Below are positions 9,267 through 44,923 of a DNA stretch of 47,196 bases, piece after piece. The position numbers and the translations under genes were made by a program. This DNA is from a virus (Duplodnaviria; Caudoviricetes): positions 1-47,196 of IMG/VR virus record IMGVR_UViG_3300044477_000031. The stretch is one strand, 5' to 3'. How positions within the stretch are numbered: the first letter of the stretch is position 1; each line of letters begins with the position of its first letter. The notes under the pieces are model-generated. The model had not been told where the DNA came from. It did not search any database and saw nothing but the letters and a program-made list of their open reading frames with translations.

Positions 9267-9512
9267 TCACTTATCAACAAAACTTCCAGCAATCTTACAA
9301 TTAGGAACATATTCAAATATCGACTTATTCGGTACTACGCAAATGAAGTCGCTCCCGCTCGCGTCCGCGTACTGTTTACAATAACGCTTTACCTGATGCG
9401 GTTGAGTCCTCGCGCCGGTTATGGAATTGAGCTTATCTGTCAAGTCCCACATACCATATCGACCGGCTGGCAGATCGTCCATCATCTGATAAAGCGTTTC
9501 TTTGATTGTCAT
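9267..9512 (-). CDS. hypothetical protein
   Basis: ORF coupled by overlap. Confidence 0.65.
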   Translation of the reverse strand: MTIKETLYQMMDDLPAGRYGMWDLTDKLNSITGARTQPHQVKRYCKQYADASGSDFICVVPNKSIFEYVPNCKIAGSFVDK

Positions 9513-9754
9513 AACCGTAACGGCCTTTCTTTCGGTACATTCTGGTAGACTGTCGGTTCATTGCTTAATCTGGCAGGTTTAGAAAACAATGCGGATTCAT
9601 TCCGGCGTGTCTCAAACTCTTGCGCGAGGACCATGAGCATACCGGGATTAGCCAGTTCAGCTTGCGCATATACCGCTTCACGTTCGACGAATAATCCGCG
9701 GTCTGTTAGCGATCTAACATACGTTCGATATAGTGCGCGTTCAAAGTCGGTCAT
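9509..9754 (-). CDS. hypothetical protein
   Basis: GAGGT RBS. Confidence 0.65.
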   Translation of the reverse strand: MTDFERALYRTYVRSLTDRGLFVEREAVYAQAELANPGMLMVLAQEFETRRNESALFSKPARLSNEPTVYQNVPKERPLRL

Positions 9755-9763
9755 CTGTTTACC

Positions 9764-9937
9764 TCACCTGTTATTTTGACGTCGCACTAGCTTTTCCAGT
9801 ATCGCCTCATTAACGAACTCTGTAACCTTGCCCGGTATCATTTCGAGTACCGGGACGGGAACAGAAACTAGAATCTTTTTCTTTTCGATTTCAGGGTCTT
9901 TCGGTGTTCTCCCTGACTTCCCTTTTTTACCACTCAT
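9764..9937 (-). CDS. small ribbon-helix-helix-type DNA-binding protein (57 aa)
   Basis: Manual translation MSGKKGKSGRTPKDPEIEKKKILVSVPVPVLEMIPGKVTEFVNEAILEKL...; GAGGT RBS. Confidence 0.6.
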   Translation of the reverse strand: MSGKKGKSGRTPKDPEIEKKKILVSVPVPVLEMIPGKVTEFVNEAILEKLVRRQNNR

Positions 9938-9939
9938 TG

Positions 9940-10176
9940 TTACCTCATCGCCTGTAGGAAGTCTTCATAGATATCTCGGATATCGTTGTCCAGTTTTGTT
10001 ATTAGGTAGCGATGAATAAAGAAGTTCCATGAACTTTGCATCTGCATCGATACCATTCCGATACCTTCGCGCATAATCCGTTCACGTTCCTTCTCGATCA
10101 TGCCAGCATTGCATCGTTCGCACGTTAAGCCGTTCGTACCACTGCAAGGCGTTTCGCAAAGATTGACTGTGCTCAT
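9940..10176 (-). CDS. hypothetical Cys-containing protein
   Basis: ORF in operon. Confidence 0.55.
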   Translation of the reverse strand: MSTVNLCETPCSGTNGLTCERCNAGMIEKERERIMREGIGMVSMQMQSSWNFFIHRYLITKLDNDIRDIYEDFLQAMR

Positions 10177-10430
10177 TTTTTCAGCGCCTTGATTTTATCC
10201 ATGCCAAGTATTCCGTTAACGTTACACTTACACGGCTTAGTGTTCCAGACCTTCTTATCGCAAGGCCATCGATTTTTACAGGATCCATTGCGGAAGTAAA
10301 TGCAAATAGTTTCGCTCATATTCGCCCCGTGTTAAAAGCGCGCACAAGCGCGAACGCTTCCTGCAAGTCCCCTGCTTCGATCCACGTTCCGCGAACGTAG
10401 ACGCTCCATATACCGTTAGTTCGTTTCATG

Positions 10431-10643
10431 TCACGCTCCCTTTACGGCTTCAAGACGAGCCGCGCCGCCAATAGCTACAAAGTCGCCGGAAGCATTCTGT
10501 ACTTCGACATATCGAACGCAGTGCGGCCTATTCGCTTCGATCATCTTTGCTTGTGCTACTATCTGCGCTTCAACCGCGTTGAAAGCCGATACCGTCAGTT
10601 CGTCGTACGTTGTAAAAACTACCTTGTAAAGATTTCGTTTCAT
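10431..10643 (-). CDS. hypothetical protein
   Basis: AAGGAG RBS. Confidence 0.65.
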   Translation of the reverse strand: MKRNLYKVVFTTYDELTVSAFNAVEAQIVAQAKMIEANRPHCVRYVEVQNASGDFVAIGGAARLEAVKGA

Positions 10644-31631: not shown

Positions 31632-31649
31632 GACTTGCTCCTTGGTTTA

Positions 31650-31721
31650 CGCCGCCTAATGGAATCGAACCATTGACAAATACATTTTGTGTATGTGCTT
31701 TCCCGTCTAAGCTAAAGCGGC
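31650..31721 (-). ncRNA. tRNA-like element with degenerate anticodon loop
   Basis: Acceptor GCCGCTT/AGGCGGC, D-arm GCTT/AAGC with GG, T-arm AATGG-TTCGATT-CCATT; anticodon loop ACAAAAT lacks U33. Confidence 0.7.
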
Positions 31722-31752
31722 AAGAAAACCCGGATAGCTTTCACCATCCGGG
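31722..31752 (-). terminator. intrinsic terminator after the major capsid gene
   Basis: CCCGGATGG-TGAAAG-CTATCCGGG followed by TTTTCTT. Confidence 0.75.
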
Positions 31753-35136: not shown

Positions 35137-35346
35137 TTATATAATACACTTCAATGATCGTGCAATCCCTTTACGCCGTGTAACTACGCCTTTTTTTATA
35201 AGCGCATCTATTATCTGGCGTGCGTTATATTCTGATGTCCCTATTGCATCCGATACATCTTTTATCGTTGGCCTGTAACCTTCACGATCATAAAATAAAG
35301 TTATAATGTCCTTCACTTGGCTTTGTCTCGGCGTTAATCCGTTCAT
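35137..35346 (-). CDS. stand-alone LexA-type DNA-binding domain protein
   Basis: LTPRQSQV...GYRPTIKDVSDAIG...LIKKGVVTRRKGIARSL; no peptidase domain. Confidence 0.85.
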   Translation of the reverse strand: MNGLTPRQSQVKDIITLFYDREGYRPTIKDVSDAIGTSEYNARQIIDALIKKGVVTRRKGIARSLKCII

Positions 35347-35489
35347 TGATTACCTCGCATCTGTATTATGCCATATATATTATGATAACGCAATATGTTT
35401 ACACTTTTCTGTTTTGTGTCACAATCATTATGAAATAAACACTGTTTTATTGTAATATTGCGGTTTGCATGAATACGTTATATTGTTTC

Positions 35490-35613
35490 ATTACGGACTG
35501 GAAAACCGTGATAATATGAGCTAATATAAAGAATCCCTTTGGGGTTCTGTTTTGTACGCTTATAGCTCAGCGTCCCGGCTTTCCACCGGAAACAGATCAC
35601 CAAAGGTTTTTTT
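35490..35613 (+). ncRNA. second C4-like antisense RNA with upstream targets
   Basis: Targets TGGAAA (hairpin 35490-35512) and TGAGCTA (35517-35523) are complementary to loops TTTCCA and TAGCTCA of the junction RNA 35536-35606, which ends in T7. Confidence 0.78.
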
Positions 35614-35677
35614 GTTTCTGGAACGTTTCGAACTGCGGGTAAAACCACATCATAGAAAGTTGTCAGTCATGGCTTAG

Positions 35678-35906
35678 ATGGACACCGGTTACAGGCCACG
35701 GCGTGGAGTTGTCGATAGATGCGCGTCGTTATTTCCGGCGGTTGATACAAACTGAAAGGCACTAAGTAAAGGCGTATTAGTCATTTACCTCGTTGGCGAT
35801 GCCGTGGCTCCGTAGGGCATGAGTTTATCGCTAGAGACAGCAACCTAACTTGACTTTACCAGTCTTGCTTAGGGGAATTGTCTCGTTAGCTCAACCGGTT
35901 CACCAT
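35678..35906 (+). ncRNA. unknown highly structured non-coding RNA
   Basis: Several nested long-range helices and no ORF with an RBS. Confidence 0.65.
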
Positions 35907-35937
35907 AGGGCATAAAGGTAGATAGATAAGATAAGGT

Positions 35938-36270
35938 TTAAGATTGACGTTTTGCCCTTGACCACTGGACGAACTTGATAGCAAGCGCGGCAAGCTGAAT
36001 TGCTTCGGTTTCCTGTTTGACGGGATCAGTTTCGGCAAAGATTTCGTTGAGTTCCTCGGCTAAAAGAGACATTGGCTCTGCCTTTCCACAGGCTTCAGCA
36101 ATATCATTATCCGCCTTATGTATATCTGCTTCATTTACATGCCATTCGACTTCTTCATCGTCCGGCATGATTATTTCCAGCTTATCCCACGGATGCTGTT
36201 CATCTTGGCGATAGCGTTCGGCTTCTATCTCTGCAAAGATTGTCTGTAGGTCAAAAGAGTTCAGGTGCAT
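35938..36270 (-). CDS. MazG-like NTP pyrophosphohydrolase-fold protein
   Basis: LAEELNEIF...ETEAIQLAALAI pattern; GGAG RBS before the MHLN start. Confidence 0.5.
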   Translation of the reverse strand: MHLNSFDLQTIFAEIEAERYRQDEQHPWDKLEIIMPDDEEVEWHVNEADIHKADNDIAEACGKAEPMSLLAEELNEIFAETDPVKQETEAIQLAALAIKFVQWSRAKRQS

Positions 36271-36457: not shown

Positions 36458-36681
36458 TGTAGTGCCTTTTCTATGTCGTTTGCGTCGATGCTTTTCCCGA
36501 AAGGTATTGAAAAGTATTCTGAGCTTCCGATAGTTGACTCAATACGTATCTGGATATCTTCACCGCATTCGGAATATCCTTCCCACTCATCGGACGCAGT
36601 TATTTCAATACCGTATTTTTCAATCAGTGTTTTAAGCTCATTCAGGAACGGCTTAACATTTTCTGGTATAGGCTCTTTCAT
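36454..36681 (-). CDS. hypothetical protein
   Basis: AAGGAG RBS. Confidence 0.65.
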   Translation of the reverse strand: MKEPIPENVKPFLNELKTLIEKYGIEITASDEWEGYSECGEDIQIRIESTIGSSEYFSIPFGKSIDANDIEKALQ

Positions 36682-36740
36682 CGTTTCGTTCTCCTTGTCT
36701 AGCAGTATACACCATGTTTAGATGATTATGCTATAAGATC

Positions 36741-36764
36741 GTCAGGTTGAAGCGCTTGTTAGCA
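36741..36764 (-). other. attC-like left half-site (truncated)
   Basis: TGCTAAC AAGCGCTTCAACCTGAC; contains the stop codon of the cassette 3 gene. Confidence 0.65.
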
Positions 36765-37397
36765 ACCCCTTTTAGCGTCAACCTCTTTGCACTTTTCATG
36801 CAAAACACCTTTGTCTTTCCAATCCTTTAGAGTTTCGTACACGCTCATAAACGCAAAATGATCTTGCATTGCCGCGATGCCTATTTCGCCATTTACCGGT
36901 GCAGCGCCTTTATACCCTGCAAGATACATAATTTGATCGACAACCCGATGAGGCACGATGTTAGTGCAAAATATTAAATCCCACTTTTCAGCAACATCAT
37001 AAAATGAGTTAATCTGTATTTCTGAAATATCCGCGAGTGTTTCAACAACTTCAGGCGTCAGTGCGTTTTCCTTCCAGTCTGAGTTCCCGATAGCGGAGTG
37101 TATGTCTTCATCCATAAAGCAATCTTCTATGTAAACCGAATCAAGGCCATGCTTGAACGCAAACACGAATCCGTCGGGGAGTTTTGTTTCATCGAGCTTG
37201 TACGCTTCTTTTGCAGAAGCCCAATAAAAATACGTCTTCTTTCCTTCGCTTGTGTACTTTATTCCTCGGCCATCCCGTGTTCCGGGAACTTCCCATAAAT
37301 TAACTGATGTGAACGATTTCATGTCCCAACGTCCACCTCCAGTGGTCTCTGCCATTAAATCACCAGTCTTCAGCAAAACGCCTGTTTTATCTTTCAT
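36759..37397 (-). CDS. hypothetical protein (cassette 3)
   Basis: GAGG RBS; stop TAA lies inside GCTAAC. Confidence 0.75.
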   Translation of the reverse strand: MKDKTGVLLKTGDLMAETTGGGRWDMKSFTSVNLWEVPGTRDGRGIKYTSEGKKTYFYWASAKEAYKLDETKLPDGFVFAFKHGLDSVYIEDCFMDEDIHSAIGNSDWKENALTPEVVETLADISEIQINSFYDVAEKWDLIFCTNIVPHRVVDQIMYLAGYKGAAPVNGEIGIAAMQDHFAFMSVYETLKDWKDKGVLHEKCKEVDAKRGC

Positions 37398-37466
37398 GAC
37401 TTCCTCAATCAGGGCTTGGTCGGTAATCGGTATAAGCGGCCCTTGCGCTTATACCGTGGACGATCT

Positions 37467-37600
37467 GGCTAACATTAAGTTAACTGGCAAGGCCCGCTAC
37501 GGGCATCACACAATCCGTCAGAATAATAATGAAAACACCGAGAATAACCTTTCGGCATTGTGCATTTCGGGGACTTGTCCAGTTGAACTTGTTGTTCGAC
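37467..37600 (-). other. attC-like site, 134 bp
   Basis: GTCGAAC AAC AAGTTCAACTGGACAAG ... CTTGCCAGTTAACTT AAT GTTAGCC, with unpaired extra bases on one arm. Confidence 0.8.
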
Positions 37601-37750
37601 GCCGCCAGAAAACAAAGCCTCTATTGATTTGATAATTTCGTTATATTCTCCGTCTGGAACCATGCGCGATATACTGACAGTTCCCATCAATCTTCCGTTT
37701 TCGTATTCAAGCGCGAGTCCTCCGATAACCCTTGAAGTCTTTATCTTCAC
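37475..37750 (-). CDS. hypothetical protein (cassette 2), reading through its attC
   Basis: AAAGGA RBS, GTG start. Confidence 0.55.
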   Translation of the reverse strand: MKIKTSRVIGGLALEYENGRLMGTVSISRMVPDGEYNEIIKSIEALFSGGVEQQVQLDKSPKCTMPKGYSRCFHYYSDGLCDARSGPCQLT

Positions 37751-37821
37751 GGTTTCGTCCTTTCTGGCGGCTTGGTTCGTGTCGGTATAAACGCGCCAGT
37801 GTTTATACCGCTAAAGAATCC

Positions 37822-37881
37822 GTCGAACATTTGGATAACTTGCAACGGTACTCCGTTGTCAAGTTGATCCAGTTGTTAGCT
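37822..37881 (-). other. attC-like site, 60 bp
   Basis: AGCTAAC AAC TGGATCAACTTGACAACGG AGTA CCGTTGCAAGTTATCCA AAT GTTCGAC. Confidence 0.85.
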
Positions 37882-38709
37882 ACTCTTATATTCTTTCGCG
37901 CGTATAGCTGGCCTCGCCCACGTCCTTTGAAACTTCATCCATTCTGAATCGCGTTCTCCTTTTGCGTCTCGATAAAGCATTGCCATAGGCATGAACCCGG
38001 CTTCCATACATTCAAATAGCCGTGATTCAGCCGCGTCGAACGTATCTTTCGGATAACCGACAAGCACATAAGCGCGGAGAGCATGGCTTGCGCGAGTGAA
38101 GCCGCCTTCAAGTAAAATCTTTCCGGCATAGTGAAGAGGGTCTTGATCTTCCGGGCCATCATACGCAAAAAAAAGCTGTTTCGGTTTTAATGCCTTTAAT
38201 TCAGCAACGTGCCACGGTTTTAAGATTGCCGCCTCTAATCCGCCTGTGAACTCGGGCGAGTGTTTTTGTCGTTTAAGCATCGCAAATACTTCGCGCACAT
38301 GGGAATCGGAACAGGCAAGCAAATTATCGTCCAAAATATTCCATCCGTCCTTTACAGGGAGTTCGCGAATAGACGAGCCTTCGCGCTTCCAAACCGAGCA
38401 AAACCAGCACTTATTCGGGCAACCGCGAGAGGTAATTGCATACCCTTCACGGACGTACATTCCCGGTGTAAAATCCTCGCCACGTTGTCCGGTTGCGGGG
38501 CCTCCGATCGTAACCGGTGCAATATGCTTCCACTCACGGGCGAGACGTTCCGCTTCAGGCAAGTCCCATGTCCACGTCACGGAAACATGAACGGCGTCAA
38601 CCTCGGGCGGGAAAAGTCCCGGCTCGCCGGTGAAAGCCAATTCATCGGTAGGTGTTGCGGATGTTCTTCTCGGGAAAACTCGCGCGATCCTCATTTCTTC
38701 CTTTGGCAT
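37876..38709 (-). CDS. radical SAM protein (cassette 1)
   Basis: TSRGCPNKCWFC CxxxCxxC motif, ILDDNLL, YVLVGYP; stop inside AGCTAAC. Confidence 0.9.
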   Translation of the reverse strand: MPKEEMRIARVFPRRTSATPTDELAFTGEPGLFPPEVDAVHVSVTWTWDLPEAERLAREWKHIAPVTIGGPATGQRGEDFTPGMYVREGYAITSRGCPNKCWFCSVWKREGSSIRELPVKDGWNILDDNLLACSDSHVREVFAMLKRQKHSPEFTGGLEAAILKPWHVAELKALKPKQLFFAYDGPEDQDPLHYAGKILLEGGFTRASHALRAYVLVGYPKDTFDAAESRLFECMEAGFMPMAMLYRDAKGERDSEWMKFQRTWARPAIRAKEYKSS

Positions 38710-38752
38710 TTCGTCAGGTATAATCCCGCAGGGATTATCCTGCGGAATGTCC

Positions 38753-38775
38753 AGCTAACATAAATTAGGCTGAAC
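38753..38775 (-). other. core site / attC right half at the array start
   Basis: GTTCAGCCTAATTTAT GTTAGCT. Confidence 0.6.
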
Positions 38776-38795
38776 AGTCTAATATCCTATTAGAG

Positions 38796-38832
38796 ATTGT
38801 ATAGCATGTTTGATTTTTTGTAAAGCTATTTA
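38796..38832 (-). promoter_or_regulatory. promoter driving the cassette array (Pc-like position)
   Basis: AATAGC-TTTACA-17 nt-TACAAT. Confidence 0.7.
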
Positions 38833-38838
38833 TACCGA

Positions 38839-39813
38839 TTAAACGCCGTAAAGCGCCGCCCAGTCAGCTATTCCGTTATCCTCGCCGTTTACGTAGTCTT
38901 TCAGTTCTTTGATGAAAGCGTCGTGATCTTTAAGGACTGGATTAACGCTACATCGGCACTGAGGATGAATTGTGTCGGTATAGTATTGTATTTGCTCTTT
39001 AGTGTAAGGGCCACCAGCGGCTATTTCAGGACAGGTACAGTCCCAATCGATATGAGAAGGCGATAAACGCCATTCAAACATACCCGTTGCCCCGGGATTA
39101 GCGTTCCCCGACTCGATATCCGCTTCCCTGATTGAATTATAAAGCTCCGTCCTTACTACCCGTTGTGTGCGATAGTCAGCCCCAGCCGTTCCTAAGCGCT
39201 TGCGGTATGCGCTTGTATCGACTTCAAGTTTACCCCATCGGCCTAGAACCGCTTCAGGGCCAGTACGTAGGTATTGCTGTATCTCTCTGGCTATCTTTAC
39301 CGGGTCTTTACCGGCTGCTATCTCACCTTCGATATAGGCAAGTATCTTATCGCTGAAATTGTCTATACCGCCCCATATAGAGTCAGATAGGTTATACCGG
39401 GCGCGATTCTCGACCTTTACCGGCGTGTATTCTGCGTTATACAGCTTTTTCTTACGGGTATTGATACGCTCGAAAATGGCGTTTATCTTTTCATCAATGT
39501 CTCGGCCAGCATCACGAAACGCTTCCTTGACGTATTTATCGTCAATGTCAGTCGTACGCTTAACGCCTTTCGATACGCTTGCCTTGATGATTGCTTTTAT
39601 CTCGCGGTATAGGTAATTACGGTCAAGCGCGTCTACGATCTTATCGCGGCTTGCATCGGATAGCGGCCTTGAAGGAAGTCGAGAGATAACGCTTTCAGCC
39701 TTGCGCGTCTGCTTAATATACAGCTCACGGATAGCGACGTTATTAGCGCATTGCAGCTTGCTGATATATGAGACAGTTTCGCGCTTGGCTTTGCGGTATT
39801 CGGATACGGTCAA
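38839..39813 (-). CDS. head morphogenesis protein (SPP1 gp7 / Mu F-like)
   Basis: NLSDSIW, RVVRTE, HPQCRC. Confidence 0.88.
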   Translation of the reverse strand: MTVSEYRKAKRETVSYISKLQCANNVAIRELYIKQTRKAESVISRLPSRPLSDASRDKIVDALDRNYLYREIKAIIKASVSKGVKRTTDIDDKYVKEAFRDAGRDIDEKINAIFERINTRKKKLYNAEYTPVKVENRARYNLSDSIWGGIDNFSDKILAYIEGEIAAGKDPVKIAREIQQYLRTGPEAVLGRWGKLEVDTSAYRKRLGTAGADYRTQRVVRTELYNSIREADIESGNANPGATGMFEWRLSPSHIDWDCTCPEIAAGGPYTKEQIQYYTDTIHPQCRCSVNPVLKDHDAFIKELKDYVNGEDNGIADWAALYGV

Positions 39814-44247: not shown

Positions 44248-44285
44248 AGAATGGTATAGCATGGTATGGATAGGCTGTCAAGGAA

Positions 44286-44850: not shown

Positions 44851-44923
44851 TGCCCAATAAAGGAATCGAACCCTTGACCTCGGCCTTACAACGGGCGCGC
44901 TCTGCCAACTGAGCTAATCGGGC
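44851..44923 (-). tRNA. tRNA-Thr(UGU), with atypical G32 and a C-C mismatch in the anticodon stem
   Basis: Cloverleaf GCCCGAT/ATTGGGC, D-arm GCTC/GAGC, loop GTTGTAA, T-arm AAGGG-TTCGATT-CCTTT; CCA not encoded. Confidence 0.8.

Follow-up and report, generated by a model that had tools for sequence, protein, structure and literature searches.

A region of this phage genome probably serves as an integron platform without an integrase of its own, in which a phage promoter and a 26-bp attI of spirochaete type precede three cassettes bounded by attC, which the IntI of an infected Treponemataceae host likely loads and shuffles. The window (the whole stretch of 47,196 bases that was analyzed) is an entire virus record, classed as linear, with a CheckV estimate of 100%, and contains genes for terminase, head morphogenesis, tape measure, DnaB, and a methylase. 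In the likely source run the region was covered by contigs at a depth of 26 to 37, with breaks only near shared cassette ends. A first-pass annotation of the DNA had already proposed that phage cassettes are served by a host integrase in trans; all its element coordinates on the minus strand hold, and the interpretation is supported. We found no match in the window to PF00589 (tyrosine recombinase, E up to 10), in agreement with that annotation, nor to PF00239 (serine resolvase), while control genomes were positive. By definition the array is a CALIN, as it has at least two clustered attC sites and no intI nearby, and it is not a complete integron, since no intI lies beside the attI, which is recognized as heading the array by sequence and position only. 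Both full sites have attC anatomy, and each cassette holds one gene, all in the same direction, as in integron cassettes. The array would work like an integron most likely via host IntI. The features are listed in Table 1.

TABLE 1 Features of the cassette region and its flanks in the window
Feature	Position	Strand	Description
Head morphogenesis gene, upstream flank	38839..39813	-	phrog_1657, E 1e-31; used to find relatives
Likely cassette promoter	38796..38824	-	Phage-type, sigma70-like, TTTACA-17-TACAAT; consensus match 10/12
attI-like site	38757..38782	-	26 bp, ends in first core GTT
Cassette 1	37828..38758	-	Hairpin leader, radical SAM gene 37876-38709 (277 aa), attC1
attC1	37822..37881	-	60 bp, full site, two extra bases
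Cassette 2	37473..37827	-	Hairpin leader, 91-aa frame 37475-37750 reading through attC2
attC2	37467..37600	-	134 bp, full site, long central region
Cassette 3	36741..37472	-	Hairpin leader, 212-aa gene 36759-37397, left arm of attC
Truncated attC	36741..36764	-	Inverse core, spacer, and left L box only
Promoter and ribosome site of downstream gene	36674..36719	-	Native; directly after head gene in L035, 93% over 46 bases

A scan of the complete window for attC anatomy returned exactly two sites, attC1 and attC2. Two sites were found in none of 200 dinucleotide shuffles, and at a strict setting, which both real sites pass, not even one site appeared (0/200). With a covariance model of our own, built from 24 bacterial attC sites only and distinct from that of IntegronFinder, attC1 scored 49.3 bits and attC2 42.5 bits, compared to 11.8 for the best other place, so that the check by covariance model suggested in the first-pass annotation came out positive for both full sites. 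In the folded sites, each left arm has two unpaired bases (C 37866 and A 37859 in attC1, C 37585 and A 37578 in attC2), i.e., a G and a T on the bottom strand, in line with the extra bases on one arm that had been noticed before. The extra C lies within the left L box and the extra A a few bases further in. This G-plus-T pattern is typical of attC. PMC3607928 mentions a G that protrudes in the L box. Core and inverse core are complementary as had been claimed, with 7/7, 8/8, and 6/7 bases matched, and the stop codons of genes 1 and 3 do lie within their inverse cores. The 134-bp palindrome reported earlier applies to the arms of attC2 and not to the site as a whole (fold z of -2.6 versus -7.2 for the 60-bp site); arms like those of attC2 but with a short loop were present in contigs from other samples. 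A search for exact repeats did not reveal the sites because of their bulges. Long phage attC sites (134 to 136 bp) were seen together with an inverse core that has no stop codon and a gene that runs into the site, namely, attC2 and positions 2100-2235 of L039 and 2537-2672 of L043.

The last attC retains only its left part, and this truncation is predicted to lock cassette 3 in place. Ends made of a left arm only recur in other phage arrays; approximately 19 of 43 end in a half site, a count subject to an imperfect walker and to bias from the selection of loci. That the terminal sites were broken at one fixed point was considered and rejected, because a left-arm pattern had served to pick the loci and the variability of the loop prevents locating the break. 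When used as a query, the truncated-site pattern retrieved nine genome loci of mixed taxa, which gave no indication of the host.

The radical SAM gene of cassette 1 matched phrog_9298 (E 2e-21) and follows a leader with a fold z of -4.9. A homologue of 81% identity was found in a Treponemataceae genome (L001), without cassette ends and among phage-type genes, and the DNA likeness extends over bases 80 to 871, which correspond to the gene alone. Our scan detected no attC in 19 of the 20 genome loci with radical SAM relatives, the remaining one (L005) having weak candidates. At the other end of the cassette, attC1 is identical over 51/51 bases to a site in L291. The first 71 bases of the cassette 2 leader are identical (71/71) to the leader before an unrelated gene in L231, and the leader of cassette 3 is common to other genes in L239, L243/L253, L281, and L295. 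No family matched the gene of cassette 2, while that of cassette 3 had 14 homologues, none of them named, and no confident match in the atlas; thus, family, homologue, and atlas searches provided no function for either. None of the three cassettes was found whole in another context on one contig.

Upstream of the first cassette, the promoter pointed out in the first-pass annotation is indeed the best match in the interval from 35 to 40 kb (10/12), although the match itself carries no weight, with 9 found there versus 9.4 expected. Since such matches are no commoner than chance in this interval, the support for the likely promoter comes from conservation, both hexamers being unchanged in the relative L045. 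The same motif occurs at window position 44266 and after the head gene of L037 with no attI following, and it is therefore considered phage type. The 26-bp attI-like site had escaped the earlier annotation, in which the first core was a bare GTT and not the end of a longer site. The crossover is predicted at G/TT, between 38759 and 38758. The first 18 bases form an imperfect inverted repeat that folds no better than shuffles (z of 0.23); its arms covary among sites (76/120 pairs versus 53 ± 4.9, kinship among the sites being uncontrolled), and we read the repeat as probable symmetric binding boxes, not as a proven hairpin. The site matches in register the attI found behind intI in the genomes G001 to G003, with 19 of 26 bases common with G003, and reached 11.4 bits on a matrix derived from bacteria only (see below). 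The strict 26-base pattern had no match in the genome collection, because the bacterial sites differ at several positions, and a 16-base fragment retrieved five viral matches, none of them before a cassette.

The comparison of the same locus in relatives is consistent with exchange at this position. A single-protein search in viral contigs found no relatives, for which reason we used an alignment of 34 of 60 head-gene homologues, which led to 18 metagenome and 42 viral loci. Only two were close relatives at the locus, one of them on a 2.1-kb contig. L045 is 86% identical over the part that it holds, with 76 of 87 bases identical from the end of the head gene to the core G, and from G/TT on it carries other cassettes (a 65-aa gene, a DUF5131 gene, and a third gene, with two full attC sites), the first inverse core matching its own core. 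In L035 (89%) the whole module is absent, and the head gene is followed directly by the promoter that lies behind the truncated site in the window. The same locus thus exists in three states. Short contigs from two other studies break at 38755-38761, with the attI of the window joined to other leaders, or the leader of cassette 1 joined to an attC right arm; together with L045, they fit the first-pass expectation that boundaries in relatives would coincide with the GTT core. The downstream end was read in 33 of the 60 loci; apart from L045, the module followed the head gene in none of them. Other lone genes occupy this position in L035 and L037, and L039/L062, L043/L053, and L063 have attC sites at another place. 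The head protein (38839-39813, minus strand) is 90% identical to P0002 overall, with a differing patch near a C-terminal Cys/His motif that suggests a putative recombination event just upstream of the array.

To avoid circularity, we defined array starts in viral contigs without reference to the attI motif. Of the 35 starts obtained, 33 were distinct, and among these TTA was present at -23 in 30, G at position 8 in 31, and A at position 17 in 32. Scanning the viral collection with the motif only gave 21 matches, 15 of which lead into cassettes (10 seen before and 5 new); the other six, five near-identical copies and one more, amount to two independent sequences with no cassette behind. In L095 there is a mismatch between the first core and inverse core. 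No phage enzyme emerged: TIGR02249 (E of 0.001) had no match in 50 viral records, 8 of them at least 90% complete, these 50 being a part of the records behind the 103 loci, and PF00589 had none in 19. Ten near-complete attI-bearing phages of 30 to 77 kb have only 0 to 6 frames each in common with the window, and any one protein family is present in 6 of the 11 at most, which makes a shared phage recombinase unlikely, although one too diverged for BLAST may be common to them. Several phages have two attI-headed arrays (L125 at 9289-10543, L291 with two sites 1.4 kb apart, G325, G331, and G342), and in two of these, L125 and L291, the flank upstream of the first array is found again at the second. 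An upstream frame of at least 60 codons ends at the attI or within it in 12 of 43 starts, and these arrays would then be expressed from phage operons. A G precedes the motif in 21 of 43 starts, as if the left end were itself a G/TT box.

To locate attI in bacteria, we looked for a GTT matching the inverse core of the first cassette in 33 loci around IntI genes, a rule that worked in 11. In G001, G002, and G003 the site has the shape of the phage one and lies 170 to 490 bases behind a co-oriented intI, which is the arrangement given for Treponema in PMC3607928. Candidates L333 and L369 do not fit the motif; they were left out of the matrix together with two near-duplicates, and the eight bacterial sites retained include one (L353) picked by motif. 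Over 72 loci, only 25 of 25,120 non-attC GTT sites reached 8 bits with this bacteria-only matrix. An attC or left arm was present within 2 kb of 23 of them (background, 2,884/25,120), and 20 had a matching core (background, 186/25,120).

We infer from the site types, the best matches of the radical SAM gene, and the head-gene relative that the host is a spirochaete, probably of the Treponemataceae. The attC left arm was abundant in genomes of Treponemataceae and other Spirochaetia, with at least 139 loci, and many other taxa had one or few matches, often on short contigs. IntI above the TIGR02249 cutoff was found in 4/5, 29/301, and 3/5 of the genomes searched. The best radical SAM matches (81% and 70%) are in Treponemataceae and Treponema bins, the former (L001) amid frames that we read as repressor-, RusA-, and antirepressor-like, in a genome with IntI. 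The sole head-gene relative in the genome collection belongs to a Treponema bin, in which IntI was not found. A portal search of 301 genomes of the phylum had no match; hence, no prophage of this phage family was found in the genomes searched. The first-pass guess of Treponema-type integrons fits these data, but the three cassettes themselves were not found in bacterial integrons.

The phage cassettes seem to form, for the most part, a separate pool with short attC, long hairpin leaders, and phage-type genes. We compared 80 viral cassettes with 242 from the genome collection. The attC was 70 bp or shorter in 78/80 of the former versus 10/242 of the latter, median cassette lengths were 357 and 871 bp, and GC contents were 0.45 and 0.33, respectively; by a rough test, a longer hairpin was present in 39/85 of the viral leaders versus 16/305 of the others. 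Only 4 of the 80 viral cassette genes had a homologue in the genome-collection set, three of them on a single 1.7-kb contig of phage format. The same leaders and attC sites recur beside unrelated genes across phages, and two pairs of cassettes from different phages aligned over almost their full length (302 bp at 74% and 140 bp at 86%). Exchange with a host-type cassette was seen once, in L392, where a 2.3-kb cassette of 34% GC in a flank of 54% GC, with a host-type leader and a 113-bp attC, stands first behind attI and is followed by cassettes of phage format; its gene codes for an S8 peptidase with IetS matches. In the opposite direction, the Treponemataceae loci L182 and L194 have a long attC and then a phage-type leader like one in L245, a possible case of phage-to-host transfer. 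Viral cargo includes genes read as methylase-like (L265, L273, L285, and L305), an RtcB ligase (L063), and DUF5131 (L045). In many cases the phage leader hairpin (e.g., window 38690-38758, minus strand) looks like a miniature attC with AAC...GTT arms, and at its 3' end it is similar to the interior of the long bacterial attC; these likenesses may bear on cassette formation.

IntI is known to excise cassettes by attC × attC and to insert them by attC × attI recombination (PMC4889954), and the cassettes of CALINs are reachable by IntI in trans (PMC9668308). We propose that, while an intI-bearing spirochaete is infected, its IntI would act on the phage DNA and recombine the folded bottom strand of the attC of a cassette circle with the phage attI at G/TT (38759/38758). 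As insertion takes place at attI, the newest cassette would be the first behind the phage promoter. Cassettes 1 and 2 would be excised by attC × attC recombination, and cassette 3, with no right arm left in its attC, would stay in place. The majority of cassettes would come from other phages of the same hosts and a few from the host chromosomal array.

In the main rival to this proposal, the sites came from integrons, but phage recombination proteins now transfer cassettes from phage to phage by homologous recombination, with the shared leaders, attC arms, and attI as regions of homology and with a minor part for IntI. The window does have AAA_24, PD-(D/E)XK, and NinB-like genes, and the near-identical leaders and attC sites found in different phages beside differing genes, such as those shared with L231 and L291, are what such a process would use. 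Crossovers inside attC would also keep the cores matched, and many arrays end in a half site. That whole cassettes common to clearly different phages are few, the two pairs mentioned above, counts against the IntI reading. Still, we regard homologous recombination as the main driver as unlikely, since it leaves unexplained the site shaped like the host attI, in register at the array starts of phages that share almost no genes, the host-format cassette of L392 placed exactly at G/TT, and the intact extra bases in attC. Host IntI and homologous recombination may both act.

Two further readings have less in their favor. Many genes of the window have no family, and a recombinase other than host IntI might hide among them or be supplied by a helper element or by a host enzyme of Xer type. 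This is very unlikely given that the window matches neither PF00589 nor PF00239, no gene family occurs in all 11 phages, a model built on IntI-linked arrays recognizes the attC sites, and the phage site matches attI beside genes above the TIGR02249 cutoff; the short tyrosine recombinase of Xer-type integron-like systems was likewise absent from our searches (PF00589, 0/19 records and the window; TIGR02249, 0/50). Were the region instead an inert relic of a host chromosomal integron that had entered the phage in a single illegitimate recombination event, the likeness to host attI would hardly be restricted to 26 bp behind a promoter of phage type, nor would the cassettes differ from those of the host in attC length and GC content. 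The truncated last attC, the absence of the module from L035, and the off-target capture proposed for phage CALINs by Qi et al. 2023 (PMC9892861) agree with such a relic, but L045 has other cassettes at the same site, and this already weakened reading appears very improbable. Loading by the host IntI is the reading that we prefer.

Part of this picture is already established. Qi, Rajabal, Ghaly, Tetu, and Gillings 2023 (PMC9892861) reported 17 CALINs in 10,705 phage genomes and recombination of five of six phage attC sites with attI1 through IntI1, as well as an attI at a CALIN start in Shewanella prophage M16-3, a cryptic prophage with a complete integron of its own. The array in the window resembles these CALINs in having at least two attC sites in a phage without intI. 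However, for CALINs of virulent phages the main text of that paper names no attI and compares no relatives, whereas the present comparison shows a minimal attI of host type in many phages without an integrase, cassette swaps between relatives at this site, and cassettes with a format of their own. With the chromosomal integrons of Treponema and Treponemataceae (Wu, Doak, and Ye 2013, PMC3607928; G001 to G003) the phage array shares the attC arms and extra bases, the shape and register of attI, and the first bases of the leader; those integrons differ in encoding IntI, mostly upstream and co-oriented, and the Treponemataceae cassettes of our set differ from those of the phage in being longer (by the medians given above) and AT rich, with attC near 119 bp and a short leader. 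Bacterial CALINs (Cury et al. 2016, PMC4889954) are also short arrays with no nearby intI that are proposed to be reachable by IntI encoded elsewhere, but they are defined regardless of attI, and most are interpreted as integrons that were split or have decayed, or as insertions at secondary sites, rather than as docking sites maintained in viruses. Insertion at attG secondary sites (Loot et al. 2024, as cited in PMC12901181) is similar in that IntI places cassettes away from its own gene; attG sites are described there as divergent from the classical ones, while the phage site matches the classical attI of the host and is conserved across phages. The literature covered, from which most subscription journals were missing, contained nothing on attI-bearing integrase-less phage arrays or on a phage cassette pool in spirochaete phages.

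Phage morons are accessory units with their own promoter inserted between morphogenesis genes, without site-specific recombination sites. The locus in the window is like them an accessory unit, likely with a promoter of its own, between morphogenesis genes but, unlike them, has recombination sites.

If host IntI does load the phage array, integrons would not be just gene-capture devices of bacteria nor phage attC clusters just stray pieces; phages of different lineages would share the host integrase as a tool for exchanging accessory genes, and the host array and the phage pool would be connected. The analysis also supplies a short, testable attI for a host group without cultures, and near-identical gene pairs inside and outside cassettes bear on cassette formation. 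A wider proposition, which we advance tentatively as possible rather than probable, is that spirochaete phages run a cassette economy of their own on the host integrase. Unrelated phages would keep the 26-bp attI as a universal dock and convert ordinary phage genes to cassettes by the addition of a standard leader and a short attC. These cassettes would be traded across lineages, and others would occasionally be drawn from the host array. Such phages would act as factories of cassettes and offer a way to study the origin of integron cassettes, a process that Cury et al. 2016 (PMC4889954) describe as unknown.

Some other features of the genome were observed near the array and elsewhere. At 35137-35346 (minus strand) there is a 69-aa protein that has a LexA DNA-binding domain (PF01726, E 5e-10) and nothing else; L035 and L043 encode homologues. 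As IntI genes are often under LexA control, this protein could affect IntI levels in the host. Next to it, about 580 bases without a long frame (35350-35930) are conserved in L035, inside an 83% match; three sub-threshold Rfam matches in 35300-36000 were judged to be due to chance. At gathering score, Rfam identified in the window two tRNAs only, a tRNA-Leu(CAA) at 31649-31722 among structural genes and a tRNA-Thr(TGT) at 44851-44923, both on the minus strand.
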